This document shows, piece after piece, positions 970 through 28,583 of a stretch of DNA of 64,000 nt (positions within the stretch are counted from its first letter, which is position 1; the number at the start of each line of letters is the position of its first letter). Source of the stretch: an uncultured virus (IMG/VR IMGVR_UViG_3300042566_001492) (Duplodnaviria; Heunggongvirae; Uroviricota; Caudoviricetes); IMG/VR virus record IMGVR_UViG_3300042566_001492; one strand, 5' to 3'. The translations under genes were made by a program, and so were the position numbers. Below the pieces are notes generated by a model. That model did no database searches, was not told the origin of the DNA, and saw nothing but the letters and a program-made list of their open reading frames with translations.

Positions 970-1806
970 ATGAGAAACACTAAAACCTATCATGAGCTCG
1001 TACAAAAGATGCGAGCATTTTTTTTGCAAAAAGGCTTCGTTGAAGTCCCAACACAATCTAGATTATCAATCTTAGCAGCGTGTGAAAATCCTCACTCAAT
1101 TACCACATTCAACTACAGTGGTGAAGTTTGGCCCCTACCACAAACCGGTCAAATGTGGCTAGAACATGAATTACTTATGAATCCAGAATGGCCTGGATGC
1201 TTTTGTATTTCAACATCTTACAGACAAGAAAAAGATCCAATTCCTGGAAGACACGAATTAATTTTCCCAATGTTTGAGTTTGAATCTAAAGGTGGTATGA
1301 AAGAACTACTTAAATTAGAATCAGAACTTTTAGAACATTTAGGATTCGACCAACCAGTTGAAGTAAATTACGATGAAGTTTGTCAAGAGTACGGTGGAGT
1401 TCCAATTTTAGAAAATGAACACGAACAAAAAATGTGGAATGAAAAAGGATCTGTTATTTCACTTCAGAACTTTCCAAGAAGAACCAATCCATTCTGGAAT
1501 ATGCAACACAACAACAATGGCATCTTCAATAAAGTAGATGTTATTCTTTATGGACAAGAAACCATTGGTTCTGCTGAAAGAAGTTGCGATGTTGAGAAAA
1601 TGAAAGAGATGTTCTACACAATCGAAGACGGTAAATACTGTGCTAAATTGTTTGAGTTGTTTAGTAAAGAAAGAGTAGAAGCAGAACTTGAAACATTCTT
1701 ACAATATGAATTCTTTCCAAGATTCGGAGGTGGAATTGGTATGACAAGATTGGCTCGAGCATATGAAATGATGAAAAGTGAAAAAGAAGTTGAAGAACTG
1801 GCTTAA
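970..1806 (+). CDS. Class IIb aminoacyl-tRNA synthetase-like catalytic domain (Asp/Asn/Lys type) with no anticodon-binding domain; AsnA(archaeal-type)/EpmA-like
   Basis: Motif 1 FFLQKGFVEVPT, motif 2 YRQE...RH..IFPMFEFE, motif 3 GGGIGMTRL; only 278 aa, no N-terminal OB fold. Confidence 0.8.
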   Translation: MRNTKTYHELVQKMRAFFLQKGFVEVPTQSRLSILAACENPHSITTFNYSGEVWPLPQTGQMWLEHELLMNPEWPGCFCISTSYRQEKDPIPGRHELIFPMFEFESKGGMKELLKLESELLEHLGFDQPVEVNYDEVCQEYGGVPILENEHEQKMWNEKGSVISLQNFPRRTNPFWNMQHNNNGIFNKVDVILYGQETIGSAERSCDVEKMKEMFYTIEDGKYCAKLFELFSKERVEAELETFLQYEFFPRFGGGIGMTRLARAYEMMKSEKEVEELA

Positions 1807-1813
1807 ATATTAG

Positions 1814-1839
1814 AAGGGAGAGTAAAATCTCCCTTTTTT
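1814..1839 (+). terminator. Rho-independent terminator
   Basis: aagggaga-gtaaaa-tctccctt followed by a T run. Confidence 0.8.
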
Positions 1840-1890
1840 ATTTTAAAACATTTACAATTTTAATAATAGAAGACTAAAATAATATCTTAA

Positions 1891-2490
1891 GTGGTGATAG
1901 TAATAGATGGTGTCGTAGGTGCAGGAAAATCTACATTAGCTCAAAAAGTAAGTAATAAATTGGGAATTCCAATTTATGAAGAACTACAAAATCAAACAAC
2001 AATGAATCTTTTAGAAGAATTCTATAAAGATAAAAAAAGATGGGCATTTACCTTACAAATACACTTTCTAAACGAAAGATTTAAGATGATTAAACAAATC
2101 CATAAAAACGGTGGTGGTATTTTAGACCGTTCTATTTTTGGGGATAGAATTTTCGCATCTATGTTGAATGAAGATGGTTATATGACAGACGATGAGTTTG
2201 CAACCTATACTACACTACTAGATAATATGTTGGAACATTCACAAAATCCACAGTTTTTAATTTATATTGATTGTGATATTGAAACAGCTATGTCTAGAAT
2301 TAAGAAAAGAGGTAGAGATATGGAACAATCAGTTGATAGATACTACTGGGGAAGATTAAATCAAAAATATCAAGACTGGTATAACAATTATGACTTATCT
2401 GATAAAATTTCCATAAGTGCGACTTCGTACCATCCAGATAATGAAGAAGATATTCAGAAAATTATTGATTTAGCTGGATTAACTATCTAA
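1891..2490 (+). CDS. Deoxynucleoside kinase
   Basis: P-loop GVVGAGKST, LDRSIFGD, RIKKRGRDME lid. Confidence 0.92.
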   Translation: MVIVIDGVVGAGKSTLAQKVSNKLGIPIYEELQNQTTMNLLEEFYKDKKRWAFTLQIHFLNERFKMIKQIHKNGGGILDRSIFGDRIFASMLNEDGYMTDDEFATYTTLLDNMLEHSQNPQFLIYIDCDIETAMSRIKKRGRDMEQSVDRYYWGRLNQKYQDWYNNYDLSDKISISATSYHPDNEEDIQKIIDLAGLTI

Positions 2491-2719
2491 ATTTATTAAT
2501 CAAGTATTTAATAGAGTCTTTTATTTCAGTAATTGGATTTGTATTAGAAAATACAAAGTAAAATCCAAAACAAAATACCGCAAGCAAGTACAAAACCAAA
2601 TTGGCTCCTAAATAAGATCCTGTTATCCTCATCAACATGATCTGTATAGCGTCGAATCCGAACGGATTGAAGAACATTCCTAACATTAGGAATAGAGTTG
2701 CTAATTTTTGTTTTTTCAT
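2483..2719 (-). CDS. Small two-TM membrane protein
   Basis: Two hydrophobic segments in 78 aa. Confidence 0.6.
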   Translation of the reverse strand: MKKQKLATLFLMLGMFFNPFGFDAIQIMLMRITGSYLGANLVLYLLAVFCFGFYFVFSNTNPITEIKDSIKYLINKFR

Positions 2720-2831
2720 TTCTCAAACTGGGACCAGGTTCCATATTACTGCTATTTTTTGACTTACTCTTCCAACAAACACAATCAACAACACCGAAGA
2801 GAAGTTATTTCTAAAAAATTATATATAAATT

Positions 2832-3479
2832 ATGAAACATCTAAAAAGGTTTTTTGAGTCTACAGATTTTAGTAAAGAAGACATACTAGAAAATTTTCTT
2901 TTTATAACTGATAAACTTGGTGATCCAGAAATATACTCATCTAAATTTGGTAATTCATCAAAGTGGATTATAAGATGGGACCTCAAAATAGATTTATCAG
3001 TTTTACAAGAAGCATCAGAGTTAATTTCAAAATTAAAAGAATTGACAGAAGATATAGATGATGTATTAACAGCCGCTGATAGAATTGGTGAATATAATAT
3101 CAATATGAGTATAACTGATCTATTAATACTCGAAATGGTTCCTAAAGACACTGGAAATAATGAATTTAATTTCATAAAAGGTTATGACAGTAGAATACTA
3201 TATGTAAGAAAAAATGAAATTGAAAGATTTTTTAACTCCAGAGGTATTAGAATAGTGAAGTGGGATAATGAAAGTTCATATAATGAGTACAATCAAAATA
3301 ATGATTTGGATATACACCTGAGTAAAAATGACATAGAGGTCACAGATGATTTTAAGAGATTAGTCAATATAGAACTGAGAAGAATAGATGATAGAGAATA
3401 TGAGTGTTCTGGTGGTGGAAGTGTAATTTCAATATGTTCTTTAGAAGAAAAGGCTTATGTAGAAATGACACTTAATTAA
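2832..3479 (+). CDS. Hypothetical protein with N-terminal MKHLKRFFES leader
   Basis: ORF; leader motif; TTATATATA 4 nt before ATG. Confidence 0.7.
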   Translation: MKHLKRFFESTDFSKEDILENFLFITDKLGDPEIYSSKFGNSSKWIIRWDLKIDLSVLQEASELISKLKELTEDIDDVLTAADRIGEYNINMSITDLLILEMVPKDTGNNEFNFIKGYDSRILYVRKNEIERFFNSRGIRIVKWDNESSYNEYNQNNDLDIHLSKNDIEVTDDFKRLVNIELRRIDDREYECSGGGSVISICSLEEKAYVEMTLN

Positions 3480-3666
3480 CATGACATTTTGTTATCTCAA
3501 CAGCATCATTTTGATATCCATCAAATAAATCTTTTCTATCTAAAGTAAAACGAGAAACCCCTAATTGTCCGGAATCATAATTTTGGAATAACTTTCCAAG
3601 ATTGACAAATGACTCAACTTTACCAGTCATTTTCCACCTAATAACAATTACCGTTTGACTTCTCAT
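3472..3666 (-). CDS. Hypothetical protein
   Basis: 64-aa ORF co-oriented with the upstream phosphoesterase. Confidence 0.5.
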   Translation of the reverse strand: MRSQTVIVIRWKMTGKVESFVNLGKLFQNYDSGQLGVSRFTLDRKDLFDGYQNDAVEITKCHVN

Positions 3667-3696
3667 ATAAATTTATAAACAAAAAAGAGAGATTGT

Positions 3697-4455
3697 TTAA
3701 TCTCTCTCTTCCCACAATTCACTAACATTTAACAATCTATGTTTAATACCATCACAGTTCATAACATCAGTTTTGTGAAAGTGTCCATAGTAATGATGCG
3801 TGATATTATTATTCATTTTAAGAATAGTAAAGGCATCGGTAACTTGTTGTCTTTCTACAAGTAAATCAGTTTTTAATTCAGTATCTCCGGTTTCTCTAAC
3901 AATTCCTTCAACAAAAGGACCAAATCCAAATGTATTATCTGGTTCACAATAATGAGGAGCCGTGTGTGTAACAACAATATCGATATCTCTCATTTCACCT
4001 AACTTATCTCTATCTAAAATAAATAATTCATCAGGCCACCAACTTTCAACACCTAAAGTTTGATTGTCAAAGTTACCGACTCTTTGAGCTTTAGTATATC
4101 TATATTTTCTATCGACACTAATAGCACCTCCTATACAAAGTATTCTTTTTCCTACTAACTCTAAAACTGTATAGTCTGGTATAAGATGAATATTTGTAAA
4201 TCCAAACGGATCATTATCAAAGTGAGGCTTGTAATCATGATTTCCACGAATTGCCCAAACATGAACATTATTTTTCACTAAAATATCATGAAACATTTCA
4301 AGCATTCTGGTTTCTTTTTCAACAGTCTTGAATCCAACTCCGAAATCACCAACTTGAATTATATGAGCGTCCTTAATACCATATAACTTCACATACTGAT
4401 GTATCAGATTAAAATTACCATGGATGTCACCCAAATAAAAAACTCTTTGTTTCAT
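3697..4455 (-). CDS. Calcineurin-like metallophosphoesterase
   Basis: GDIHG, VGDFG, RGNHD, THTAP, GHFH motifs. Confidence 0.92.
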   Translation of the reverse strand: MKQRVFYLGDIHGNFNLIHQYVKLYGIKDAHIIQVGDFGVGFKTVEKETRMLEMFHDILVKNNVHVWAIRGNHDYKPHFDNDPFGFTNIHLIPDYTVLELVGKRILCIGGAISVDRKYRYTKAQRVGNFDNQTLGVESWWPDELFILDRDKLGEMRDIDIVVTHTAPHYCEPDNTFGFGPFVEGIVRETGDTELKTDLLVERQQVTDAFTILKMNNNITHHYYGHFHKTDVMNCDGIKHRLLNVSELWEERD

Positions 4456-4461
4456 AGTTTA

Positions 4462-4493
4462 CAAATATAATTAAAACTTTTCAGACTTCCAAA
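4462..4493 (-). promoter_or_regulatory. Bacteroidota sigma70-type promoter (-33 TTTG / -7 TAnnTTTG)
   Basis: Minus strand TTTG-N20-TATATTTG, 6 nt before the ATG at 4455. Confidence 0.75.
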
Positions 4494-4555
4494 TTTATTA
4501 GATGTATATCATGATGTTACATGAAATTTAGGAAATTTTGAATATAATCAATATT

Positions 4556-4564
4556 TAATATATA
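4556..4564 (+). promoter_or_regulatory. TAATATATA motif (putative phage late promoter)
   Basis: One copy of a motif recurring just upstream of many genes. Confidence 0.6.
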
Positions 4565-4572
4565 ACATAATT

Positions 4573-5139
4573 ATGAAAAAGATTAAAACTTTCCAAACAT
4601 TTAATGATGGATTTGATAAATTCTCTTCTTACTTATATTCTATTCTTAAAAGAGGTGGTAAATTCGCATCAGATGTTTGGGAAGCGACTAAAGTAGAAGG
4701 AGAAGAAACAAAATTAGCATTACGAATTTTATCCAAAATGATTAAAGGTGAAGATGTCACTGATAGAGAAAAACAATTCTTAAAAGCTCAGTCAGGTGAT
4801 ATCATTAGGATACTACCATTGGTTGCTATATCAGGAATACCAATTCCAATTCCAATCACTCCACTACTAGTTATGTTGGGTAAAAAATATGGATTTGATT
4901 TTCTACCTAAAGATCATAGACAACTTCTTAGTAATCAAATAGAGCTTCCAGAAAATGTCAAAGTTATGTTAAATGAATTTCCAGAATCAGGAATGGGATA
5001 TCATAATGTAGATATTATACTTAAAGATGGAAAAATATTAACATCTCGAAAAATAATTAATGGAACATATTTACTCTTAAACCCTACGGAATCAATAGAT
5101 ACAAATAACATAGAAAGCCTTACCCAGACTACAAATTAA
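4573..5139 (+). CDS. Leader-tagged protein with a LETM1-like helical/TM region and a small C-terminal domain
   Basis: MKKIKTFQTFND leader; ETK..L..L...DVTDREKQFLKAQSGDIIRILP...LLVMLGKKYGFDFLP resembles the LETM1 N-terminal region; C-terminal FPESGMGYHNVDIIL. Confidence 0.55.
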   Translation: MKKIKTFQTFNDGFDKFSSYLYSILKRGGKFASDVWEATKVEGEETKLALRILSKMIKGEDVTDREKQFLKAQSGDIIRILPLVAISGIPIPIPITPLLVMLGKKYGFDFLPKDHRQLLSNQIELPENVKVMLNEFPESGMGYHNVDIILKDGKILTSRKIINGTYLLLNPTESIDTNNIESLTQTTN

Positions 5140-5184
5140 ATTTTATATTATTTTTATAAATATATAGAAAAACAATTATTTTCT

Positions 5185-7323
5185 ATGTCAATAAAGTCTA
5201 AAATTTCATTAATTATATCCATTATAATAATGAGTATTTTCTTTTTCACAAAAACCTCAGTTTTTATAGACATATTACCATCAACTCCTACAACTAGAGG
5301 AATTGAATATTTTTGCTTTTTACTTTTTGTACCCTTCTTTTATGTTGTTATAAGAGAACAACTTCATAAGAATAGATTAGAAGCAAAAATGGCTAAGTAT
5401 ATTAAAAAATTAAATAATGCACTTGTTAATCAATCTCACAATACTTTATTTTATGAAGGTAAAGTAGAACAAGGAGCTAAAGCACTAACAAAAGAAGTTA
5501 TTACAACAATGGAAGTTGATAGATGTTCTATATGGTTATATAATTCCGATAAAACATCTATAACTTGTCAACAACTTTATATAAAGTCTGAAGATAGTTG
5601 GTATCAAAATATTGAACTATTTAGAAAAGACTTCACACCATATTTCGATCATTTGTTAATAGATCCTATAATAACAGCAAATGATGCTGAAGAACATCCA
5701 GCTACAAAATGTTTTACTGAAACTTATTTAAAACCGCTTGGAATAAAATCAATGTTAGATGTTCCAATAATACACAGAGGTGAAGTTATTGGTGTTATCT
5801 GTATTGAGTCTTTTATTGGTCGTGAATGGAATAAGTCCGAAGTTGACTTTGCTCAAATGTTATCATCATTATACACATTTGCTTACTCTGTAGGTGAATC
5901 TAATAAATTATCAGAGCAGATGTTTGAGAATGATAAATTTCTTGATGCGTCTGCTATCATCTCAGTTGCTGATTCTAAAGGAAAGATAACTTATGTTAAC
6001 CAAAGATTTACAGATGTTTCTGGATATTCTTTAGAAGAAGTTATAGGAAAAGACCATAATATAGTAAACTCTGGTACACACACTAAAGAATTCTGGACAG
6101 AGATGTACAAAACCGTTATTGTAGATAAAGGTATTTGGAATGCTGTATGCACCAATCGTGCAAAAGATGGTTCCTTATATTATGTTGATACTTTTATAAA
6201 AGCTAGATTTGATAATAATAAACTTGTTGGTTTCTCTTCTATCCGACAAGATGTAACAGATTTAAAAAGAAAGGAAATGGAAATATCTAACAGGATGAAT
6301 GCTATTAATAGATCGAATGCTGTTATTGAATTTGACTTAGATGGCAACATAAGATTTGCAAATGATTCATTTTTAAATGTCTTAGGATATACACAAGATG
6401 AAATTGTTGGACAACATCATAGTTTATTTATAGAGAATGATTATAAAGATAGTGAGGAATATAAAGATTTTTGGAAATCTTTAAGAGAAGGTAACTTCTT
6501 TAGAGGTGAAATTACAAGAAGGAAAAAAGACGGAACATTGATTTACCTTCAAGCAACATACAATCCTATTTTAGGAAATGATGGCAAACCTTATCGAATA
6601 ATGAAAATTGCTACAGATATTACTGAAAGTTACAATCAACAGATGGAAATTGAAAAGAAAAATACTTACCTTGAACACTCCGCTAAGATATTAAGACATG
6701 ATATGCATAGTGGAATTAACACATATATGCCTCGTGGATTAAGCTCACTTGAAAGGAGATTATCAGATGACCAAATAAAAGAACTTAAATTGGAAGCTCC
6801 TCTTAAAATGATTAAAGAAGGTCTTCGTCATACTCAAAAAGTTTATAAAGGAGTTTATGAGTTTACGAATCTTGTTAAGAAAGATGTAGTACTCAATAGA
6901 TCTGAATGTAATCTAAAAGATATTCTTGAAGACTATCTATCAGCGACCGCCTATAGATCACAGGTAATAATTGAAGACTTAGGAACAATTGATGTCAATG
7001 AATCTCTTTTCTGCACTGCTGTAGATAACTTAATAAGAAACGGACTAAAATATAATGATTCGTCCACTAAGTTTGTTAAAATATATTCTGAAGAGAATTA
7101 TATTTACATACAAGATAATGGTAGAGGAATCACACAAGAAGATTTCGATCACTTATCTAAACCATATACAAGAAAAGAAGGTCAAAAAGAAACAGGTACT
7201 GGACTTGGTCTTAATATCTGCGTTGCTATTTTACAGGAACATGGGTTTGATATTTCTTGTGAAAAAAACGAAATAGGAACAAAAATAAAAATTAAAATAA
7301 AAAATAAATTAAAATATGATTGA
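5185..7323 (+). CDS. Sensor histidine kinase: 2 TM, GAF, 2 PAS, HisKA-like, HATPase_c
   Basis: GAF (RCSIWL...GIKSMLDVPI...IGVICIE), PAS (ITYVNQRFTDVSGYSLEEVIG; IRFANDSFLNVLGYTQDEIVGQHH), H-box LRHDM, N-box NLIRNGLKY, G1 QDNGRGI, G2 GTGLGL. Confidence 0.93.
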   Translation: MSIKSKISLIISIIIMSIFFFTKTSVFIDILPSTPTTRGIEYFCFLLFVPFFYVVIREQLHKNRLEAKMAKYIKKLNNALVNQSHNTLFYEGKVEQGAKALTKEVITTMEVDRCSIWLYNSDKTSITCQQLYIKSEDSWYQNIELFRKDFTPYFDHLLIDPIITANDAEEHPATKCFTETYLKPLGIKSMLDVPIIHRGEVIGVICIESFIGREWNKSEVDFAQMLSSLYTFAYSVGESNKLSEQMFENDKFLDASAIISVADSKGKITYVNQRFTDVSGYSLEEVIGKDHNIVNSGTHTKEFWTEMYKTVIVDKGIWNAVCTNRAKDGSLYYVDTFIKARFDNNKLVGFSSIRQDVTDLKRKEMEISNRMNAINRSNAVIEFDLDGNIRFANDSFLNVLGYTQDEIVGQHHSLFIENDYKDSEEYKDFWKSLREGNFFRGEITRRKKDGTLIYLQATYNPILGNDGKPYRIMKIATDITESYNQQMEIEKKNTYLEHSAKILRHDMHSGINTYMPRGLSSLERRLSDDQIKELKLEAPLKMIKEGLRHTQKVYKGVYEFTNLVKKDVVLNRSECNLKDILEDYLSATAYRSQVIIEDLGTIDVNESLFCTAVDNLIRNGLKYNDSSTKFVKIYSEENYIYIQDNGRGITQEDFDHLSKPYTRKEGQKETGTGLGLNICVAILQEHGFDISCEKNEIGTKIKIKIKNKLKYD

Positions 7324-7747
7324 TTCAATTTTACTAGTAGACGATGAGAATTTATTTCACTTAGTATTCGAAGACGCTTGTAGCCTCTTAGACATCTCAC
7401 TTAGTCTTGAAGGAATAGATAGCTCTGATGAGGCGGCTAAACTATTTGAGGGATGGCAAAAAGATCCTAGTGGAAAACCAGAATGTGTTTTTGTAGACTT
7501 AAATATAATTGGTTCTTCTTATGATGGGATAGAATTAATTAGAAAAATTAATTTTGAATATGGTAATCACGTAGTTATTGGTATCATATCATCATCAAAC
7601 GAACCAGAAGAACAAGCAAAAGCAATTCAAGCCGGTGCTCAATTCTGGATAATTAAATCAGATGATATAGAACCAAGACTAGAGGATTTTAGAAAAGACT
7701 ACGATAGTTATAAAAATAGAACAGCTCCATTTAAGATTTACAAATGA
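7316..7747 (+). CDS. Single-domain response regulator (receiver only)
   Basis: ILLVDD, phospho-acceptor in VFVDLN, IISSS, conserved K in WIIKS; no output domain. Confidence 0.9.
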   Translation: MIDSILLVDDENLFHLVFEDACSLLDISLSLEGIDSSDEAAKLFEGWQKDPSGKPECVFVDLNIIGSSYDGIELIRKINFEYGNHVVIGIISSSNEPEEQAKAIQAGAQFWIIKSDDIEPRLEDFRKDYDSYKNRTAPFKIYK

Positions 7748-8421
7748 TAAAACTTGACAAAAAAACCAAGGATCAATTGATTGATTTATACAAGACAAAA
7801 AAAATTGCTCTTGAAGGAAATATTTTAAAATTAATTGATCCAGATGGTGATTTAGAGTTAGAAAGTTATTTAAAAGAAACCACTGAAAAAGATAAAGATA
7901 CTAGAAGAAAAAGATTAGAAGTAACTCGTAAAGTACAAAGTCAGAATAATGATTTAGTTAAGTGGAAAGAAGAAAATGAAAAAATTCAATTAGAGTTAAA
8001 GGAATCTCTTGAGAAAACAGAAAACTCTATGAGAGAAATGGAGTCTCTTAAAGAAGAAGCTGAATGCGCAAGATTAGAAGCAGAAAGGTTAAAAGAAGAG
8101 GCAGATCAGGCAAGATTAGAAGCCGAAATATCTAAACAAGAAGCAATAAATGCTAAGAATGTAGCAGAAGGTGATTTAGAGTTAATACAAAAGAAAACTC
8201 AATTTGAGTTGATAGGAACAATAGTTAAGGTTGCTCTTTGGGTTATACTTGGTGTTGGTGGAGTAACAACAGTTATGTACTTAGTTGCACTGTCAACTGG
8301 ATTAGACACAACAGTTATTGGATCAACTTGGAGTAATATTATAGGAATTTTATTAACAAACGCATTCAGTATTGTAGGTACAATTATGGGAGTTAAGTAT
8401 GCGTCAGAGAAGAAAGACTAA
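7744..8421 (+). CDS. Coiled-coil protein with two C-terminal TM helices, translationally coupled to the receiver gene
   Basis: ATGA overlap; EAECARLEAE/EADQARLEAE repeats; hydrophobic hairpin at the C-terminus. Confidence 0.75.
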   Translation: MIKLDKKTKDQLIDLYKTKKIALEGNILKLIDPDGDLELESYLKETTEKDKDTRRKRLEVTRKVQSQNNDLVKWKEENEKIQLELKESLEKTENSMREMESLKEEAECARLEAERLKEEADQARLEAEISKQEAINAKNVAEGDLELIQKKTQFELIGTIVKVALWVILGVGGVTTVMYLVALSTGLDTTVIGSTWSNIIGILLTNAFSIVGTIMGVKYASEKKD

Positions 8422-8849
8422 TATTTCATCAAGTAATCAACTACTTGTGACCAATTCATAAATCTCTCATCTTTTCCAAAAAAGATATGTTCACCCTCGA
8501 ATTCAGTTTGACCGTGTCGGTAATCATCATCAATTAGATAATCACCTTTTACTAATGACTTATTAGGACAAAGAATTAATTTTTCAAGCATTTGTTCACC
8601 AAAATAATTTTTAATCCACTCGGCTTTTTCGGTATAACAATGTGTATTTTTAATAGATGGTCTAGTTAAAATCCAAACATCATACTTAGTCATTAATGTA
8701 TTCATACCATCAATTGCACCTTCTAATGGTTGTAAATCTAAAAAGAAACCTACTTTAGAATGTGGGTATTTTAATTTGAATTCTCCTGACTTAAATGGAC
8801 CAATGAAATCACAAAGTGTGTCGTCCATATCTACATATACTCGTTTCAT
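8418..8849 (-). CDS. 5'(3')-deoxyribonucleotidase (NT5C/HAD family)
   Basis: Likely start MKRVYVDMDD at 8849, right after TACATTTG; EKAEWI, KSLVKGDYLIDD. Confidence 0.9.
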   Translation of the reverse strand: MKRVYVDMDDTLCDFIGPFKSGEFKLKYPHSKVGFFLDLQPLEGAIDGMNTLMTKYDVWILTRPSIKNTHCYTEKAEWIKNYFGEQMLEKLILCPNKSLVKGDYLIDDDYRHGQTEFEGEHIFFGKDERFMNWSQVVDYLMKY

Positions 8850-8850
8850 A

Positions 8851-9042
8851 TTACAAATGTATGAAATTTTTCCATTCTTTCCAATTATCAAATTCTTTTA
8901 AATTCTCAATCTCTGATTCAAGTTCGATAAATAACTTTTCTCTCATACTCTTATATTGATGTAACATAAGACCACCATTAATTGAATGTAAGTCAATCAT
9001 CGCGTTGACTTTTTTAATTTCTTCTATTATATCTTGTATCAT
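8851..9042 (-). CDS. Hypothetical protein
   Basis: 63-aa ORF within an operon. Confidence 0.5.
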   Translation of the reverse strand: MIQDIIEEIKKVNAMIDLHSINGGLMLHQYKSMREKLFIELESEIENLKEFDNWKEWKNFIHL

Positions 9043-9256
9043 ATTATTTGATTTATTTTTTCGTCTCTTTTCTCACTTAACCAGTTGTAATATTTTTCCA
9101 ATTTAACTACTTCTCCAAATCCTCTAACACTTTTGGATAAATTTATAACTTTAATATCTAGCATTTTATTATGAATATCAAATGAATCACATATTATATC
9201 TTTATTATATCTAAGATGTTCATGTAGGAAGTCGGTCAACAATTCTAAAGTTATCA

Positions 9257-9257
<1 letters not shown>
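9039..9257 (-). CDS. Hypothetical protein with C-terminal KRDEKINQII motif
   Basis: ORF coupled to purA; C-terminal motif. Confidence 0.6.
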
Positions 9258-10947
<1,690 letters not shown>

Positions 10948-12984: not shown

Positions 12985-13224
12985 ATGAAAGAAAAGGAGA
13001 TTAAAAAAGAGAAACCGGTTAAAAAAACCAGAAGAAGTTCTAAAAAGAAAAAACTATATAGAACTGATATGAATATGTTTGTTTTTAATAACGAACAGAA
13101 GTTGGAAATCATAAAAGTTCCTAACAAATATGCTAAAAACTACATCACAGACTTTGGTGTTATGACTGTAAGAACCAGAGAAGAGATCGAAACTTGGTTA
13201 TACAATCTACAAATGCAATCATGA
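12985..13224 (+). CDS. Basic hypothetical protein
   Basis: Lys/Arg-rich N-terminus; ATGA overlap with rpiB. Confidence 0.55.
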   Translation: MKEKEIKKEKPVKKTRRSSKKKKLYRTDMNMFVFNNEQKLEIIKVPNKYAKNYITDFGVMTVRTREEIETWLYNLQMQS

Positions 13225-13670
13225 AAAGAATATCTTTAGGGTCCGACCACGCTGGTTGGAAATTAAAACAAGTAATTAAAGAGTACCTACATTCCAAAAC
13301 AGGATTAGATAGATTAGAAATCAATGACTGGGGATGTTATTCAGAAGAAAGATGTGACTATCCGGACTTCGCACATAAAGTAGCTGAAGATGTTGAAAAC
13401 AAAAAGTGTGACTTTGGAATTCTTATCTGTGGTTCAGGAAACGGAATAAATATGACAGCTAACAAATGGTCAGGAGTCAGATCAGCTCTTTGTTGGGAAT
13501 CAGAAATCTCACATATGGCTCGTTTACACAACGACGCAAACATTCTCACATTACCTGGAAGATATATCAGTGAAGAAGAAGCAATCAATTGTGTTGATGA
13601 ATTTATCAATACTAATTTCGAGGGTGGAAGACACTCAGATAGAGTTGATAAAATTTGTAAAAAAAATTAA
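13221..13670 (+). CDS. rpiB: Ribose-5-phosphate isomerase B
   Basis: GSDHAG, DYPD, ICGSGNG, ANK, ARLHNDAN, FEGGRH; start moved to the ATG at 13221. Confidence 0.96.
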   Translation: MKRISLGSDHAGWKLKQVIKEYLHSKTGLDRLEINDWGCYSEERCDYPDFAHKVAEDVENKKCDFGILICGSGNGINMTANKWSGVRSALCWESEISHMARLHNDANILTLPGRYISEEEAINCVDEFINTNFEGGRHSDRVDKICKKN

Positions 13671-18058: not shown

Positions 18059-18148
18059 ATGTCAACAGAAATTATTACAGCGATTCTAACACCTATTTTG
18101 ATATTTGTAGTATTTGCTTACTACATCCTTAAGAAAGATAAAAACTAA
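18059..18148 (+). CDS. 29-aa single-TM peptide
   Basis: MSTEIITAILTPILIFVVFAYYILKKDKN, read by hand. Confidence 0.45.
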   Translation: MSTEIITAILTPILIFVVFAYYILKKDKN

Positions 18149-18726
18149 TCACATTTAAATCTATAGCTTTTTCTATGGTGGTCACAAAGACCAAAAATTT
18201 TAACCGACTCTAAATGTTTTTTGGTTAAATACCCCATGTTATTTTGCCAATCATATTGAGGATACTCTTTTGATAATTCAATCATAATATCATCTCTTGT
18301 TACTTTTGCCAAAACAGAAGCTGCAGCAATTGACATGAACTTATCATCACCCTTAACAACAGTTGAGTGTTCAATATCTTTGTACTTATTAAAGTAATTA
18401 CCATCTATTATAAGATATTCTGGTTTTACATTTAATCCATCTACCGCTCGGTGCATTGCTAACATTGTTGCTTGAAGAATGTTAATATTGTCTATCTCTT
18501 GTGGTGTTGATACAGCAACACTATATGATATAGCATGTTCTTTTATGTATTGGAAGACTTCTCTTTTTTGACTTTCTGTCATTTTTTTTGAGTCTTTTAA
18601 TTTAGAGTGATAGAATCCTTTTGGTAGAATAACAGCAGCGGCGACAACTGGACCTGCTCCACATCCTCTACCAGCTTCATCTAAACCACACTCTAATACT
18701 TTACCTGAGTAGTTTTCATTTAACAT
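18145..18726 (-). CDS. rnhB: Ribonuclease HII
   Basis: GLDEAGRG, DSKK, IDGN, KGD...SIAAASVLAKVTRD, HRKSY. Confidence 0.96.
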   Translation of the reverse strand: MLNENYSGKVLECGLDEAGRGCGAGPVVAAAVILPKGFYHSKLKDSKKMTESQKREVFQYIKEHAISYSVAVSTPQEIDNINILQATMLAMHRAVDGLNVKPEYLIIDGNYFNKYKDIEHSTVVKGDDKFMSIAAASVLAKVTRDDIMIELSKEYPQYDWQNNMGYLTKKHLESVKIFGLCDHHRKSYRFKCD

Positions 18727-20355: not shown

Positions 20356-21189
20356 ATGTTATTAAAAGTTGGAAGTAAAGGAGAAGATGTTAAAAAACTC
20401 CAATCAAAATTAGGACTAACAGCTGATGGTTCATTCGGACCAGGCACAGAAAAAGCTGTTAAAGCATGGCAAACAGCCAATGGATTAAAAGCGGATGGTA
20501 TCGTAGGTGACGGTACTTGGGCAAAAATGTTTAGTGGAGAAACACCAGCTACAAAACCAGCAGCGGCTCCGGTAGTAATTCCACCATCTGAATTTAAATT
20601 AGAAGCTCTTAAAGGACACGTTCCTGATGCAGTTATTGCTCAGATACCTGATACAGCTGCTAAATTTAATATTACAAATCCATTGAGATTAGCTCATTTC
20701 TTAGCTCAGTGTGGACACGAGTCTGGTGGGTTCAGAGCTGTTTCTGAAAACTTAAATTATTCAGCTAAAGGTTTATTAGGAACTTTTGGAAAATACTTTA
20801 ACTCAACAACAGCCGCTCAATATGAAAGAAAACCAGAAATGATTGCTTCAAGAGTTTATGGCGGAAGAATGGGTAATGGTGATGAGGCTTCTAAAGAAGG
20901 TTTTAAATTCAGAGGTAGGGGTTATATTCAATTAACCGGTAAATCAAACTATACTAACTTTACTAAATTTATCGGTGAAGATTGTATTGCTAATCCAGAT
21001 TTAGTTGCTACTAAATATCCTTTAGCATCAGCAGCATTCTTCTTCGATTCTAATAAATTATGGTCTATCTGTGATAAAGGTGCGACTGACGCTGATGTTA
21101 CTGCAGTTACAAAAAGAGTTAATGGTGGAACTATTGGATTAGCTGATAGAATTAAACACTTTAAAGAATATTACGCATTATTGAAATAA
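20356..21189 (+). CDS. Endolysin: peptidoglycan-binding domain plus GH19 (chitinase/lysozyme-like) domain
   Basis: ADGSFGPGT, GLKADGIVGDGTW; HFLAQCGHESG, FRGRGYIQLTG, TKRVNGG. Confidence 0.92.
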   Translation: MLLKVGSKGEDVKKLQSKLGLTADGSFGPGTEKAVKAWQTANGLKADGIVGDGTWAKMFSGETPATKPAAAPVVIPPSEFKLEALKGHVPDAVIAQIPDTAAKFNITNPLRLAHFLAQCGHESGGFRAVSENLNYSAKGLLGTFGKYFNSTTAAQYERKPEMIASRVYGGRMGNGDEASKEGFKFRGRGYIQLTGKSNYTNFTKFIGEDCIANPDLVATKYPLASAAFFFDSNKLWSICDKGATDADVTAVTKRVNGGTIGLADRIKHFKEYYALLK

Positions 21190-21994: not shown

Positions 21995-22729
21995 ATGAAT
22001 TACGAAAAAGAATTTAAGAAATTTGCACTTAGCGAAGGAATATCATCTATGAACCTTCATTATTATCAACAACAAATTGAAGGAAGTATGACTCCATACA
22101 TTCTTGAAGAAAGAGAAATGAGAGTAACTCAAATGGATATCTTTTCAAGATTGATGAGAGATAGAATTCTTTGGGTAGCTGGAGCGGTAAATGACCAAAT
22201 GTCAACTATTGTTCAGGCACAGTTGATGTTTTTAGACTCTACTGAAAAGAAAGACATCACAATGCACATTGACTCACCAGGTGGATCAGTAAAGTCTGGA
22301 TTATCTATGATTGATGTTATGAATTATATAAATTCGGATATTATCACTGTTAATACGGGAATGGCTGCTTCAATGGGATCTGTTCTTCTTTCATCAGGTA
22401 CTAAAGGTAAAAGATCATCACTTAAGTTTTCTAAAGTAATGACACACCAAGTATCACATGGAACTCAAGGTAATGTTCAAGATACTCGTATCAATCAACT
22501 TGAAGCTGAAAAGTACAACTTTATTTTGTTTAAGATGTTGGGTGAGAATTGTGGTAAAACATATCAAGAAGTTATTGAGTGGTCTAGAAGAGACCGTTGG
22601 TATAACTCGGATGAAGCATTAGCTTTCGGATTAATCGATGAGGTTATTGGAGTTGATGAAAAAACAACAATCACTTCAATGTTAGATGGTTTTGATGAGT
22701 ATTACAAAAATGAAGTAATGAAGTCGTAA
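21995..22729 (+). CDS. clpP: ATP-dependent Clp protease proteolytic subunit
   Basis: MDIFSRLMRDRI, IDSPGGSV, GMAASMG (catalytic Ser), MTHQ (His), RDRW, FGLIDEV. Confidence 0.95.
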   Translation: MNYEKEFKKFALSEGISSMNLHYYQQQIEGSMTPYILEEREMRVTQMDIFSRLMRDRILWVAGAVNDQMSTIVQAQLMFLDSTEKKDITMHIDSPGGSVKSGLSMIDVMNYINSDIITVNTGMAASMGSVLLSSGTKGKRSSLKFSKVMTHQVSHGTQGNVQDTRINQLEAEKYNFILFKMLGENCGKTYQEVIEWSRRDRWYNSDEALAFGLIDEVIGVDEKTTITSMLDGFDEYYKNEVMKS

Positions 22730-23261: not shown

Positions 23262-25394
23262 ATGAAGAAAATTTTATTTATAACTCCACATTTATCAACC
23301 GGTGGACAACCACAATATCTTTATAAAAAAATAGAACATTTTAACAACCAGTTTGATGTTTATTGTGTTGAACACAGCAACTTTTCTGATGAATATGTTG
23401 TACAAAGGAACAGAATAAAAAATTTAATAGGTGAAAAGTTAATTGCTTTAGGACCATACAAAAGTGATCTTCTTAATATAATTTCAGAAATCAAACCTGA
23501 TGTTATTCATATAGAAGAAATACCAGAAACATTTTTAGATAGATACCTACTAAAGTCTATTTATAATGAGGACAGAGATTATCACATAGTTGTAACAACT
23601 CATACCTCAGGAACTGTTCCAAGTGAATTAAGATTTTTAGCTGATAAATTTGTACTGGTTTCTACATGGAGTAAAAGAATTTTTGATGAACACTTTAAGG
23701 GTGAAATACCTTGTGAGATTTGGGAATATCCAGTAGAAAATCTAAAACCAAATAAAGAAGAAGCTCAAGAAATTCTTGGATTTGAGAAAGATTGGAAACA
23801 TGTTATCAACGTAGGTTTATTCACACCCGGAAAGAACCAAGGTGAGTTATTTAATTTAGCATCATTGTTACAGAGATATAAGATTAAATTTCATTTTATT
23901 GGTAACCAAGCTGATAATTTTAGTGACTACTGGTCACCAATTATGAAAATTAAACCGGATAACTGTATAGTACACGGTGAAAGAAGTGACGTTGATTTAT
24001 TTTATCAAGCAGCAGACGCTTTCTACTTTACTTCCAACCATGAACTCAATCCGTTAGTAGTAAAAGAATCATTATCTTGGGGTATTCCTACCTTCATAAA
24101 AAAACTCTTTACATATGAAGAAACTTATGATGGTTTAGTAACTTACATAGATAAAGACCAAAATATCAATATAAAAAATCTTATTGACATTTTAAGACCT
24201 GAAAGAGTTGAAGAAATTCCAGGTTGGTTTTCATACCAATCATTATATGACTTTTTTGTTAGACAATCCAGTGATGATTCAATAATCGTTGAAATTGGTA
24301 GTTTCTTAGGAAAGTCAACAAAATATCTTGTTGATAAAGTTAAAGCATCAAGTAAAAATATTCATGTAGTCGCAATAGATACTTTCAAGGGAACTACAAA
24401 TGAAGACTTTCACGTAAACTTTGTTTCACAACATGATGGTGATTTATATCAAGAATTTTCACAAAATGTTGACGTGACTAATCTAACTGTACTTAAAGAA
24501 AACTCAAATGACGCTTGTCAGTATTTTGGTAACGGAACAATCGACTTTTTAATGATTGATGGTGACCATTCTTACGAGGGAGTAACCTCAGATATTAAGA
24601 ACTATTTTTATAAAATGAAACCAGGTGGTTTTATTTCGGGAGACGATTACAATGTTTTTGATAGCACAACTCAGGCAGTTAATGATTTTTTCAGAGGAAC
24701 TCACCACTTATCACATAATGGTATTAATTGGTATTATAGAATTCCTAGAATTCAGTTGATTCACTTATCAACCACACCGATGAGTGAAAGAGCGATTAAA
24801 TCCTTAGCTAATATCAAAAATCTTGATAAGTATAATATTGATGTTAGAATGATACAAAATGAACCATATACTGGTAAAATAGATATGGATACTTATAGAA
24901 ATCCATTCTCAACTACTGTAAAACCAGCTCATTATGGTTGTTACTTAGCACACTGTGAGGCTTTACTTTCAATAGACGATGTTAACTATGATTACACAAT
25001 AGTTATGGAAGAGGATGCTTACTTAGATTGTACTCTAAAAGAATTTGCTGATATGGTGCATAGAGTTATCTTCGCTTGTGAAAAAGAATCAATCTATTTT
25101 GTCGGACTTGGAAATGAAAACTTTGTAGAGTCACATGATTTCAATGATGAACTCACAAGATGTTGGCATCAAAATTTAGCTCATTGTTATCTAATACCTA
25201 ATAGATACAAAAGTTGGTATGTTGATAAAATTTCATCTTCTAGTTGGGATGTTGCTGATATTTGGTACAATCACATTTTTAACATGGATAGACAAACTAG
25301 ATTAGCAACAAAAAAAGTTTATTCTAAACAAATTGCAGGAGTTTCAATAATAGATAATGTTTATAAACAATACAAAGAAGGATTAATGATATGA
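23262..25394 (+). CDS. Fusion: GT-B (GT4-like) glycosyltransferase, class I SAM methyltransferase and GT-A/GT25-like domain
   Basis: TPHLSTGG, KNQ, ELNPLVVKES; VEIGSFLGKS, IDGDHSY, GDDY; GCYLAH...MEEDA. Confidence 0.85.
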   Translation: MKKILFITPHLSTGGQPQYLYKKIEHFNNQFDVYCVEHSNFSDEYVVQRNRIKNLIGEKLIALGPYKSDLLNIISEIKPDVIHIEEIPETFLDRYLLKSIYNEDRDYHIVVTTHTSGTVPSELRFLADKFVLVSTWSKRIFDEHFKGEIPCEIWEYPVENLKPNKEEAQEILGFEKDWKHVINVGLFTPGKNQGELFNLASLLQRYKIKFHFIGNQADNFSDYWSPIMKIKPDNCIVHGERSDVDLFYQAADAFYFTSNHELNPLVVKESLSWGIPTFIKKLFTYEETYDGLVTYIDKDQNINIKNLIDILRPERVEEIPGWFSYQSLYDFFVRQSSDDSIIVEIGSFLGKSTKYLVDKVKASSKNIHVVAIDTFKGTTNEDFHVNFVSQHDGDLYQEFSQNVDVTNLTVLKENSNDACQYFGNGTIDFLMIDGDHSYEGVTSDIKNYFYKMKPGGFISGDDYNVFDSTTQAVNDFFRGTHHLSHNGINWYYRIPRIQLIHLSTTPMSERAIKSLANIKNLDKYNIDVRMIQNEPYTGKIDMDTYRNPFSTTVKPAHYGCYLAHCEALLSIDDVNYDYTIVMEEDAYLDCTLKEFADMVHRVIFACEKESIYFVGLGNENFVESHDFNDELTRCWHQNLAHCYLIPNRYKSWYVDKISSSSWDVADIWYNHIFNMDRQTRLATKKVYSKQIAGVSIIDNVYKQYKEGLMI

Positions 25395-26542: not shown

Positions 26543-26544
26543 AA

Positions 26545-26569
26545 AAACCCTCTCAATTTGAGAGGGTTT
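26545..26569. terminator. Bidirectional terminator
   Basis: aaaccctctcaa-t-ttgagagggttt between convergent genes. Confidence 0.8.
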
Positions 26570-26591
26570 AGTTTTTAAAATAGAAATTATT

Positions 26592-26759
26592 TTATTTTTT
26601 GTTAATAACTGACCAGATGGTACCAGTAAGTGTCATAACACCACCAATAATTTCAGTTACAACTGCCTCATCAACAAGACCTCTCATAACCAAAATACCA
26701 CCTACGAATGTAAGAGTGTGTCTTACAATACCTAAAATTTGTTCTTTAGTAAGTTTCAT
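26592..26759 (-). CDS. 55-aa two-TM holin-like protein (below ORF-track cutoff)
   Basis: MKLTKEQILGIVRHTLTFVGGILVMRGLVDEAVVTEIIGGVMTLTGTIWSVINKK; CAATATATA upstream. Confidence 0.7.
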   Translation of the reverse strand: MKLTKEQILGIVRHTLTFVGGILVMRGLVDEAVVTEIIGGVMTLTGTIWSVINKK

Positions 26760-26839
26760 AGTATATTTTTATTTTTATATATTGACCTGAAAAAATCTAA
26801 TTTTTCTAAATTAATATATACTTAAAAAATTCGAGGATT

Positions 26840-27274
26840 ATGACTTATAAAGATAATACACCTACCTATAATGTTAATAGAAAAGTAGTTAATTTTGGAG
26901 ACTTTGCTAACAACTTAGAGGCAGAGAAGGAAAAATTGAAAAAAGTTAAAAGATCTTTTCAACCAAATTCAGATAGACAGAATTTTCCATCAAATACCAG
27001 AAATGAGTTTGATCCTATAACTCGTAAAATCACAGCTTACACAGAAGATGAAATTGATGATAAACTTACCCAAATCGAAAACTATGAAGGTTTAGAAGAA
27101 TCGAAATCCGAGAAAGCAGAAACTTTAGAAGATTGTCCATCTTATAAAGATTTCAATAAGGCAATATCCGAACTAAAGAAAGTAACTAAAAAGATTCACT
27201 CAGAATTGAAAAGAGGAACTAAAGGAGAGATTGATGATTATATCGAGAAGAAGATTTTTGGCAGAGATGTTTAA
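26840..27274 (+). CDS. Hypothetical protein
   Basis: TAATATATA at 26812-26820; 144-aa ORF. Confidence 0.65.
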   Translation: MTYKDNTPTYNVNRKVVNFGDFANNLEAEKEKLKKVKRSFQPNSDRQNFPSNTRNEFDPITRKITAYTEDEIDDKLTQIENYEGLEESKSEKAETLEDCPSYKDFNKAISELKKVTKKIHSELKRGTKGEIDDYIEKKIFGRDV

Positions 27275-27298
27275 TTTAGTTAATTTTTATTATAACTC

Positions 27299-27690: not shown

Positions 27691-27708
27691 AGTGTATATA
27701 TTAAATAA

Positions 27709-28515: not shown

Positions 28516-28583
28516 ATAGATTTATATAAATTTATTTACTATAGTTTTTTCAACCAACATCTTATTTTAGATATAATTAAGGT

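Follow-up and report, generated by a model that had tools for sequence, protein, structure and literature searches.

The locus that we have studied lies in a stretch of 64,000 nucleotides from an uncultured virus (hereafter the window). Three open reading frames follow one another on the + strand, to which all coordinates below refer. The first (5185-7323) encodes a sensor histidine kinase of 712 aa (P0001), the second (7316-7747) a stand-alone receiver of 143 aa (P0002), and the third (7744-8421) a protein of 225 aa that we call X. The kinase and receiver genes overlap by 8 nt, and those of the receiver and X by 4 nt. A first-pass annotation, made from the sequence alone, had proposed these three overlapping genes, and the ORF calls and translations show that they are real.

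The kinase was assigned from its ORF, Pfam matches, an alignment of 19 sequences (A1) and matches to structures in the PDB. Residues 1-57 (5185-5355) include two hydrophobic segments in hydropathy windows 1-32 and 38-57, which we read as a putative membrane anchor whose outer loop is very short. The hydrophobic pair had been absent from the earlier description of the protein. The anchor is present in related kinases of 525-560 aa and of 700-730 aa, and is absent from those of 640-646 aa, a class of ten ORFs. It is followed by a GAF domain at residues 98-229 (5476-5871; Pfam GAF, E = 2.9e-17), which is optional in the family, being missing from the 525-560-aa kinases (52 of 89 kinase-type ORFs).

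Two PAS domains come next. PAS1 (residues ~249-361; 5929-6267) resembles the flavin sensors. Comparison with the PDB by phmmer gave matches to 3ewk, which we take to be MmoS (E = 1.1e-25), to Aer (8dik, E = 8.2e-15) and to NifL (2gj3, E = 5.8e-12), aligning over the whole length of the domain. The likeness to Aer and NifL that had been suggested is thus confirmed, and by phmmer PAS1 belongs in sequence to the flavin-binding PAS subgroup of MmoS, NifL and Aer, although its domain context (anchor-GAF-PAS-PAS-kinase) differs from theirs. The NCBIfam NifL model also matches the kinase with E = 5e-36, but the score of 124 bits is far under the 242-bit cut-off. The PAS domains of MmoS, NifL and Aer bind FAD, and PAS1 may bind flavin too. 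PAS2 (residues 379-481; 6319-6627) is matched by Pfam PAS_9, PAS and PAS_3 with E ~1e-23, and weakly matches LOV domains in the PDB. The adduct-forming cysteine of a LOV domain sits in a GXNCRFLQ motif. PAS2 has GQHHSLF at this place, where H412 is invariant, and by our reading it lacks the cysteine expected of a blue-light LOV domain.

The dimerisation and phosphoacceptor helices, including the H-box, were located at 6646-6894 by the near-total invariance of residues 492-525 across the 19 aligned sequences and by the alignment of helix 2 with HK853 and QseC, both of which are fitted by the spacing between the H-box and helix 2. The H-box LRHDMHSGIN corresponds to residues 503-512, and the proposed acceptor is His505 (codon 6697-6699), followed by Asp506. 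H505-D506 is invariant in 19/19 aligned homologues; 80 related loci encode 89 kinase-type ORFs, each of which has RHDMH. None of Pfam HisKA, HisKA_2 or HisKA_3 matches the kinase at E ≤ 0.01, so that His505 was chosen from a visual alignment together with invariance, and the earlier wording of an intact but atypical H-box is fair. The ATP-binding catalytic domain (7006-7302) is matched at residues 608-706 by Pfam HATPase_c (E = 4.5e-16; 59.7 bits against a cut-off of 26.4). As had been claimed, the N and G boxes expected of a class I kinase are complete; the N box (DNLIRNGLKYN), G1 (DNGRG) and G2 (GxGLGLN), lying in the stretches N615..N624, D644-G648 and G671-N677, are invariant in all 19 sequences. 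The domain can be aligned with the solved structures of QseC and HK853 (PDB 2c2a, 3dge, 3jz3), which have a like class I-type core.

Response_reg is the sole Pfam domain of the receiver (37.8 bits against a cut-off of 30.2), in agreement with its description as a protein without an output domain. Among 55 sequences, with a mean column identity of 89%, the catalytic residues D9, D10, D61, S92-S94 and K114 are invariant, providing the acidic pair, phospho-accepting aspartate, Ser/Thr and lysine of a CheY-like protein. The receiver also has a conserved C-terminal tail of 25 residues, in which P120, R121, L122, F125, D128, Y132, F139 and Y142 are invariant in the same set. From the translational coupling and co-conservation of the two genes we infer that the kinase would transfer phosphate to the receiver.

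In protein X a long coiled coil connects a small N-domain to a membrane hairpin of two helices. It falls into no family in Pfam, PHROGs or NCBIfam, where the matches were sub-threshold coiled-coil noise; the best in PHROGs was phrog_1544, of unknown function, with E = 0.007. A Foldseek search of the PDB with the modelled structure gave no match at E ≤ 0.001. The N-domain (residues 1-75; 7744-7968) was delimited by conserved residues, a profile search and its fusions to kinase cores. LEGN, Y42, D50, R54, R57, L58, T61, Q65, N68 and L71 are conserved, and the profile found 201 representatives, with the match at the N terminus in nearly all. In five of these the N-domain is fused to HisKA/HATPase_c, once directly behind a receiver (locus L101). 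Its fusion elsewhere to a kinase core marks it as a putative signal-input domain, and we propose that in X it could serve as the docking site for the receiver. The predicted complex of the receiver with X(1-155) had a median score of 0.26, under the mark of 0.32, and speaks neither for nor against their contact.

The coiled-coil rod (residues ~76-152; 7969-8199) is placed by the AlphaFold2 model, in which a single continuous helix runs from 37 to 185 with a mean pLDDT of 86, and by variation of its length in whole heptads. The spacing from N68 to Q149 in 56 X sequences is 81 (n = 37), 74 (n = 6), 67 (n = 2) or 46 (n = 11) residues; spacers differ solely by multiples of 7, in X and the kinase-core fusions alike. 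The hairpin (helices at ~153-186 and 199-217 by hydropathy) and short charged tail occupy 8200-8421, with W196, N198, G201-N206, F208-I210, G212-I214, G216, K218 and Y219 invariant in the 56 sequences. A search for longer proteins with the hairpin gave a single match, a protein of 458 aa in which a complete X follows an unrelated N-terminal part, and none of the 120 matches listed in a second hairpin search had a Pfam domain; both speak, weakly, against direct fusion of sensor domains to the hairpin. The hydropathy segments and the modelled helix bear out the coiled coil with a two-helix C terminus. As to the further comparison with a holin or antiholin, X has the two helices and a charged tail (KYASEKKD), but it matches no described holin family in Pfam or PHROGs, and its length of 225 aa, with a cytoplasmic N-terminal part of 150 residues, is atypical for a holin.

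The first-pass annotation had further placed the trio behind a AAATATATA motif (5158-5166), which proved to carry no demonstrable signal. The window has three copies against 5.6 expected by shuffling, and 96 of 100 shuffles reached at least three. This is chance level, and we have discarded the motif as a promoter. A scan of 4400-9300 for promoter-like sites found 24 against 30.1 expected, and scans for sigma-70-type promoters and terminators gave no excess over shuffled sequences.

Could the contig be cellular, with the trio a two-component operon of the usual bacterial kind? A scan of 63 ORFs of the window against PHROGs showed no capsid, portal or terminase, the window is rich in metabolic genes, and four related contigs lie in MAG bins. 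Despite these points a cellular source is very improbable, for the nearest relatives of the window in IMG/VR, G001 and G002, are syntenic with it over 970-10947 and have baseplate-hub and virion genes. Moreover, on another IMG/VR contig, G003, a trio whose kinase, receiver and X are 82%, 91% and 52% identical to those of the window lies together with a terminase large subunit, tail sheath, two portal-like genes, sigma factors, UvsX and DnaB. The trio is thus found directly with terminase, portal and tail genes in G003, and the window is tied to tailed phages through its synteny with G001 and G002. In a MAG contig of 66% G+C (L103) a virion structural protein is encoded two genes from the trio. 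The N-domain of X was found in none of 401 sampled Bacteroidota genomes (positive control 4/4), and a single-protein scan of GTDB genomes gave no close kinase. The element is viral, as had been proposed, and the window probably derives from an uncultured jumbo myophage with a host among the Bacteroidota. The phage-type flanks that had been described are borne out only loosely: phage identity is established by related contigs, and the direct neighbours of the trio in the window are genes for a metallophosphoesterase, an NT5C nucleotidase, PurA and a deoxynucleoside kinase.

A search for the three-gene synteny showed that the trio is conserved. In 80 related loci, which are mutually related so that the counts are not independent events, the receiver is present in 79 and X in 78, the misses falling at contig ends. 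The gap between receiver and X is -4 to +6 nt in 77/77 loci, and that between kinase and receiver is -8 to +22 nt in 64 of 74, with inserts of 727-2045 nt in the other ten. When loci were collected by X instead, a receiver gene came immediately before it in 72/74, both misses being at contig starts. Four loci (L198, L199, L201 and L251) have the receiver and X with no kinase within ~3.5 kb upstream. The fixed core of the module is the receiver and X.

The module is widespread in viral sequences. A relative of the kinase is encoded on 522 IMG/VR contigs, the hairpin of X is matched by 5642 protein clusters, and the Atlas clusters of X are 94-100% viral. The INPHARED phages gave no match to the receiver and no close kinase; ten records matched PAS parts only, all at <60% identity. 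Among the 401 Bacteroidota genomes a close receiver occurs in one, and this cellular locus has a kinase and receiver without X. The pair on a Bacteroidetes chromosome (a 967-kb contig with ribosomal protein S7), whose kinase and receiver share 60% and 62% identity with their phage counterparts, raised a host-to-phage origin for these two genes, but with a single genome having a close receiver the transfer may have run in either direction. The same chromosome, together with the four loci that keep the receiver and X with no kinase nearby, could suggest that the module mainly hijacks host signalling for takeover of the cell, by exchange of phosphate with host two-component proteins or by mimicry of a receiver, with X being secondary. 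There is a slim chance that this is correct. With a close receiver in 1/401 genomes, the majority of hosts would have no such pathway to imitate, and the H-box of the kinase, the receiver and X are co-conserved on viral contigs ranging from 28 to 66% G+C.

X might instead act on the input side, adjusting the kinase as a membrane-bound accessory or scaffold, like the third genes of many two-component operons, in which case the phosphorylated receiver would have a different target in the phage or host. X and most of the kinases are both membrane proteins, and the conserved tail of the receiver could dock elsewhere. Furthermore, the lone cellular pair manages without X, so that this family of receivers can have another target. 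Yet X abuts the receiver and not the kinase in every one of the 77 loci, even where there are inserts or no kinase nearby, and the kinases of 640-646 aa have no anchor, so that X need not encounter the kinase within the membrane. In L101 the N-domain fronts a soluble kinase core behind a receiver, which fits a flow of signal from receiver to N-domain. On balance we consider an input role for X unlikely.

The reading that we prefer, and to which we would give an even chance, is that the phage owns a phosphorelay running from sensor to receiver to the membrane hairpin of X, acting post-translationally at the inner membrane. The membrane-anchored kinase would read the state of the infected cell through its cytoplasmic GAF and PAS domains; since PAS1 groups with the flavin-binding domains of MmoS, NifL and Aer, what is sensed is probably the redox or energy state. 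The kinase would autophosphorylate on His505 and pass the phosphate to Asp61 of the receiver. Having no DNA-binding part, the receiver would act through protein-protein contact with the N-domain of X, and the resulting change would run down the heptad-registered rod into the two-helix hairpin, which would then alter something in the inner membrane. The ligand, the phosphotransfer, the binding of receiver to X, the effect on the membrane and the link to lysis are each putative.

What might the hairpin do? In counting lysis-type genes we included lysins with GH19 or PG_binding_1 domains, GH24 lysozymes and holins. Such a gene is the immediate neighbour of the trio in 45 of the 80 related loci, lies within two ORFs in 49 and is found anywhere in the locus in 56, leaving 24 with no recognised lysis gene. 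These genes stand in at least eight different arrangements. The earlier suggestion of a role in lysis timing draws support from these loci, but not from the window or its two closest relatives (L020 and L021), where the trio has no lysis gene next to it; in the window a GH108-domain gene at a distance of 2.6 kb and a GH19 lysin at 12 kb come closest. Small two-helix holin-like ORFs also occur near the trio in relatives. With other holin candidates beside the trio (Phage_holin_4_1 and cluster c5), X need not be the holin, and comparison of its hairpin with the neighbouring two-helix holin-like cluster gave an hhalign probability of 0.7%. Our favoured sub-reading, which is possible and no firmer than tentative, is that the hairpin sets or gates the time of lysis.

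X could alternatively be a membrane-damaging effector directed against competitors or used for early abort, as in superinfection exclusion or altruistic shut-down, and have no part in normal lysis timing. Two-helix membrane effectors under the control of a sensor are common in defence systems, and the hairpin of X is nearly invariant. However, the neighbours of the trio are lysins and holins and not defence genes, and its sensors are of cytoplasmic redox or ligand types and not nucleic-acid sensors, making such a role quite improbable. The lysis-timing reading in its broadest form would be a post-translational 'sense-and-lyse' circuit, endemic to viruses and present in large phages of several host phyla, in which a flavin/GAF kinase measures energy state, and the receiver and rod open or block the hairpin and so trigger or hold back lysis. 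We regard this as doubtful, but if true it would be the first known phosphorelay-gated lysis clock in any virus.

Aspects of the proposed pathway have known counterparts. In bacteria, LytR is a DNA-binding transcriptional regulator. The LytSR two-component system of staphylococci, with the holin/antiholin-like LrgAB and CidAB, is linked to the activity of murein hydrolases and to cell death and is alike in concept in that a sensor kinase governs holin-like membrane proteins (PMC2996381). In contrast, the phage receiver has no DNA-binding domain and the genes are viral; Pfam and PHROGs reveal no relationship between X and Cid/Lrg. In lysis inhibition by phage T4, involving holin T and antiholin RI, the phage likewise adjusts its lysis time to a signal by means of a protein that targets a lysis protein in the membrane, but by direct periplasmic binding, with superinfection as the signal and no phosphorylation (PMC11413866). 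X has no sequence likeness to the T4 lysis-inhibition proteins.

In the usual view, virulent phages rely on holin clocks and simple antiholins for the timing of lysis and leave environmental sensing to the host. The agr set of the Clostridioides difficile phage phiCDHM1 is not known to include a cognate regulator. This phage carries agr quorum-sensing genes that include the kinase AgrC, and so has a bacterial-type histidine kinase gene in a phage genome, but is temperate with agr genes derived from its host (PMC3901668). The present module differs in being complete, with kinase, receiver and dedicated partner, in being endemic to large virulent-type phages, and in its rarity in cells. A literature search of main texts found no paper describing such a phage cassette. 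A complete kinase-receiver pathway with a dedicated membrane output is endemic to large uncultured phages and nearly absent from the sampled cellular genomes. If the reading is right, phages could sense the redox or energy state of the host and act within seconds, without transcription.

The output of the receiver is likely to be its binding to another protein. CheA-CheY-FliM and DivJ/PleC-DivK-DivL similarly employ a single-domain receiver that acts by protein contact. Compared with the CheY and DivK pathways, the phage module is virus-borne, its H-box lies outside Pfam HisKA and its partner is a new membrane protein. If the proposed pathway is correct, what single-domain receivers bind would become directly testable with three small proteins, and the N-domain of X would be a new input domain that drives either a membrane hairpin or a kinase core. 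DivK acts on DivL, and the arrangement in L101, where the N-domain precedes a second kinase core, recalls this.

The first-pass annotation had described three overlapping genes, and the open reading frames with their translations bear this out. The kinase (712 aa) is encoded at 5185-7323, the receiver (143 aa) at 7316-7747 and the third protein, here termed X (225 aa), at 7744-8421, all on the plus strand, with overlaps of 8 nt between kinase and receiver and 4 nt between receiver and X. The AAATATATA motif noted ahead of these genes is present at chance level, with 3 copies seen against 5.6 expected. With the exception of this motif the earlier observations were confirmed, while their interpretation was supported in part.

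The kinase was expected to have a GAF-PAS-PAS architecture. Pfam gives GAF at residues 98-229, PAS at approximately 249-361 and 379-481, and HATPase_c at 608-706. Hydropathy analysis reveals two further hydrophobic segments near the N-terminus (residues 1-57) that were missing from the original description. PAS1 matches the solved PAS domains of 3ewk (E 1e-25), Aer and NifL, all of which bind FAD, in agreement with the proposed likeness to Aer and NifL. PAS2 weakly resembles LOV domains, but has GQHHSLF at the site where LOV domains carry the motif GXNCRFL.

The H-box had been called intact but atypical, and the N and G boxes complete. Across 19 homologues of 68-94% identity almost no change is seen in the stretch KNTYLEH.AKILRHDMHSGINTY.PRGL or in the boxes N, G1 and G2. 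No HisKA-type model matches the kinase in the Pfam scan, so that 'atypical' is a fair description of the H-box. Aligned by eye, H505-D506 occupies the His-Glu position of the HisKA pattern. The second helix of the dimerisation/phosphoacceptor (DHp) region aligns with HK853 and QseC, and its distance from H505-D506 fits this placement. The receiver protein is a bare receiver domain by Pfam, as had been claimed, with no output domain. Among 55 sequences no variation is seen at D9, D10, D61, S92-94 or K114, nor in the 25-residue C-terminal tail.

We examined the conservation of the trio by an alignment search of IMG/VR with the kinase. Relatives were encoded in 522 of 545 pattern matches, and the best 80 of these 522 loci were analyzed. 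By tblastn the receiver is found in 79 and X in 78 of the 80 loci, the misses lying at contig ends (locus L062, and L031 for X), so that the triad is indeed conserved. At these loci the receiver shares 78-91% identity with its window counterpart, the kinase 66-85% and X 46-75%. Receiver and X adjoin in 77 of 77 loci, the gap between their genes ranging from -4 to +6 nt. The gap between kinase and receiver is -8 to +22 nt in 64 of 74 loci; in the other 10 the two genes are 727-2045 nt apart, with a second kinase-like ORF inside in nine. A reverse survey, comprising 74 viral loci seeded by the X N-domain, found the receiver directly upstream of X in 72, the two misses beginning at X, and the kinase present in 66. 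In four of these loci (L198, L199, L201 and L251) no kinase lies within about 3.5 kb upstream, and receiver and X are kept. L251 is otherwise syntenic with the window, having a tRNA-synthetase-like gene, metallophosphoesterase, receiver, X, NT5C and PurA, and in L198 a divergent GH19 lysin lies upstream of the receiver.

The 80 viral loci contain 89 kinase-type ORFs, all with the sequence RHDMH. Their sensor part is modular: 52 are anchor-PAS-PAS, 13 have the anchor-GAF-PAS-PAS form of the window, 10 are GAF-PAS-PAS lacking the anchor, and the remainder are shorter forms. In nine of the 80 loci (L035, L067, L068, L070-L074 and L083) a second kinase of 407-467 aa separates the first from the receiver, and likewise in L100, a contig from a metagenome-assembled genome (MAG), at 6287-7510. 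It shares the RHDMH H-box and HATPase_c with the first kinase; its N-terminal part is unrelated and in most cases starts with a signal-peptide-like segment. A 204-aa ORF (cluster c18) with a hydrophobic segment at its N-terminus accompanies it in seven of the nine loci. Two sensors may thus feed one receiver.

Is the trio truly phage-borne? The window has a G+C content of about 30% and contains lysins as well as numerous metabolic genes such as large phages carry; a PHROGs scan of 63 window ORFs gave no match to capsid, portal or terminase. The kinase is also found at 82-85% identity on three IMG/VR contigs (G001, G002 and G003). G002 is syntenic with the window over 970-10947, with proteins 37-84% identical, and both G001 and G002 carry baseplate-hub, tape-measure-like and virion-protein genes. 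G003 (115.8 kb, CheckV completeness 42%) unites the trio with a terminase large subunit, a tail sheath and two portal-like genes, and it further encodes three sigma factors, UvsX, DnaB, SbcCD, ligase and a clamp loader. These contigs uphold the assignment to phages. Uncultured phage records of 462-642 kb hold the nearest relatives (37-39%) of the G003 terminase, and Sphingomonas phage PAU and Tenacibaculum phage PTm1 come next. In the Atlas, the clusters that include X are 94-100% viral.

The phage probably infects a member of the Bacteroidota, judging by the likeness of the window PurA and on type IX secretion sorting domains in proteins of the related phage loci. Bacteroidota names are attached to 68 of the 80 PurA matches listed, including every listed match of at least 57% identity. 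Large type IX cargo proteins with SprB/PKD/Ig repeats and CHU_C or Por_Secre_tail sorting domains are encoded beside the trio (L051:2552-4879, L101:376-4506 and related loci), and Hsp70/DnaK (12 loci) and FKBP (nine loci) genes occur on those phage contigs. The trio is spread more widely than Bacteroidota phages, being also present in L103, a contig of 66% G+C in a Gemmatimonadota MAG bin. Two genes away from the trio it encodes a virion structural protein (phrog_1645, E 5e-82), and thus L103 at least resembles a phage contig misplaced in the bin.

Cellular occurrence is sparse. Scanning GTDB species genomes with a single protein gave PAS-level matches only, and an alignment scan found five loci (L100-L104). 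L100 and L103 are complete trios on short MAG contigs, and L104 is a 2-kb fragment; the bins holding short trio contigs (L100, L103, perhaps L101, L104) are Verrucomicrobia, Gemmatimonadota, Bacteroidetes and Proteobacteria MAGs. The sole cellular locus is L102 (G004:C1, about 506.9-519.8 kb), on a 967-kb Bacteroidetes contig that also encodes ribosomal protein S7. Its multi-PAS kinase, apparently split into ORFs of 515 and 425 aa, shares 60% identity with the phage kinase, and its receiver 62% with the phage receiver; a TetR gene follows, and X is lacking. Sulfur-transport and cytochrome c genes lie on one side of it, with the TetR gene on the other. Among 401 sampled Bacteroidota genomes the X N-domain profile found no match (positive control 4/4), and the only close receiver was that of the L102 genome. 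The trio family thus resides mainly in phages, and X is phage-specific within the genomes searched.

X was assigned to no family in Pfam, PHROGs or NCBIfam searches. An AlphaFold2 model (alignment of 56 sequences, mean pLDDT 86) has a small N-terminal helical unit followed by an unbroken helix of residues 37-185. Read together with hydropathy, this helix extends out of the cytoplasm to form the first membrane segment; a turn of four residues then leads into the second membrane helix (190-222). The earlier description of a membrane-anchored coiled coil with two C-terminal transmembrane segments is thereby borne out. X contains no histidine and hence is no phosphotransfer protein. Hardly any variation is seen in the outer loop and the second membrane helix, which points to a specific membrane contact, through self-assembly or with a conserved partner. 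Source names of X homologues (clusters P0274-P0392) include 'Fe2+ transport system protein B', 'flagellar biosynthesis GTPase FlhF', 'Rad3-related DNA helicase' and 'LptF'. These are plainly spurious, and probably stem from the coiled-coil or membrane bias of automatic naming.

A profile of residues 1-80 found 201 representatives among 1.84 billion proteins, and in nearly all of the 150 matches listed (of 201) the match is N-terminal. Most full-length members close with the hairpin ...LLTN.FSI.GTIMGVKYA. Five of the 25 longest members scanned with Pfam (P0164, P0179, P0180, P0210 and P0212) instead join the N-domain to a HisKA/HATPase_c kinase core through a heptad-registered coiled coil; three have a HisKA match and all five a canonical SHNLRGP H-box. 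In the alignment search the 74 viral loci matched no further than the N-domain and rod. L101 comprises kinase, receiver and a fusion of this type (7189-8238), a 349-aa protein that shares 37% identity with X over its first 91 residues (E 1e-15) and consists of HisKA plus HATPase_c in the remainder. The fusion gene immediately follows kinase and receiver on a Bacteroidetes MAG contig that also bears genes for type IX secretion cargo, and its product may be a receiver-controlled second kinase.

Residues N68 and Q149 of X are invariant, and the spacing between them is 81, 74, 67 or 46 residues in 37, 6, 2 and 11 of the 56 sequences, i.e., differences of 7, 14 and 35. In the five kinase fusions the spacing from N68 to the acceptor histidine is 54, 54, 47, 47 and 33, with differences of 7 and 21. 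The length of the rod therefore changes by whole heptads only, as expected if the phase between the N-domain and its output, whether hairpin or DHp, must stay fixed. We infer that this marks the N-domain as a signal-input domain acting through a rigid coiled coil. Since the X gene always sits at the receiver stop codon, the receiver is the obvious putative ligand of the N-domain.

The first-pass annotation had suggested that the output might be lysis timing. ORFs flanking the trio in the 80 loci were grouped into clusters, which were named by Pfam and PHROGs. A GH19 lysin with PG_binding_1 occurs in 44 loci, a 280-aa PG_binding_1 plus phrog_3000 protein in 27, a GH24 lysozyme in nine, and a Phage_holin_4_1 protein directly upstream of the kinase in six. 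One of these four directly adjoins the trio in 45 of the 80 loci; the number rises to 49 when a distance of up to two ORFs is allowed, and to 56 when the whole locus is considered. The loci are mutually related, so these counts are not independent. For scale, three of the 85 window ORFs of at least 90 aa are of peptidoglycan-hydrolase type. The arrangements are diverse, upstream or downstream of the trio and on either strand, and small two-helix holin-like ORFs near the trio are common (cluster c5, 17 loci). However, no lysis gene adjoins the trio in the window or in its two closest relatives, L020 and L021; the GH19 lysin gene of the window is at 20356-21189. We therefore give signaling through a membrane output about an even chance, and regard lysis timing, as a narrower reading of it, as a tentative and rather doubtful proposal.

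From its sequences the trio appears to be a two-component pathway whose membrane output is new and specific to phages. Many large uncultured phages carry it, and full-text searches of main articles yielded no description of a phage kinase-receiver cassette. In the passages covered, a jumbo-phage survey mentions only a divergent receiver, never linked to kinases (PMC7824862). The words kinase, two-component and sensor are absent from the main text of 'Clades of huge phages' (PMC7162821) and from a 2026 preprint on large-phage envelope proteins (10.64898/2026.10.24.761521). A kinase gene, agrC, is known in phage phiCDHM1 (PMC3901668), and LytSR (PMC2996381) and the T4 holin/antiholin (PMC11413866) serve as comparison systems.

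The window also encodes a phage purine and nucleotide set, consisting of PurA (9257-10543, minus strand), PurB (38651-39982, plus), deoxynucleoside kinase (1891-2490, plus), NT5C nucleotidase (8418-8891, minus) and RpiB (13194-13670, plus). The PHROGs family of the window PurA is annotated as a 2-aminoadenine-pathway synthetase. The protein is full-length (Pfam E 1e-168) and 53-62% identical to cellular (Bacteroidota) PurA, a strong likeness that argues for an ordinary PurA. Five large glycosyltransferase-domain genes occupy 23262-35705 on the plus strand (GT1+Methyltransf_24, GT9, GT1+FkbM, GT2+FkbM and GT9), three of the five proteins (655-942 aa) having methyltransferase domains. With a second sugar-modification cluster at 54284-57774 (minus), these look like a factory for surface-glycan or DNA/virion glycosylation. 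Peptide deformylase (258-821, minus), a ClpP-type protease (21995-22729, plus; Pfam E 3e-52) and RNase HII (18145-18726, minus) are also present. Lastly, a 278-aa protein resembling class II aminoacyl-tRNA synthetases (970-1806, plus; phrog_29758, E 1e-99) shares 51-54% identity with the 'tRNA ligase' of Prochlorococcus phages P-SSM7, P-SSM2 and P-SSM5, and 46-50% with parts of 484-735-kb records from uncultured phages.
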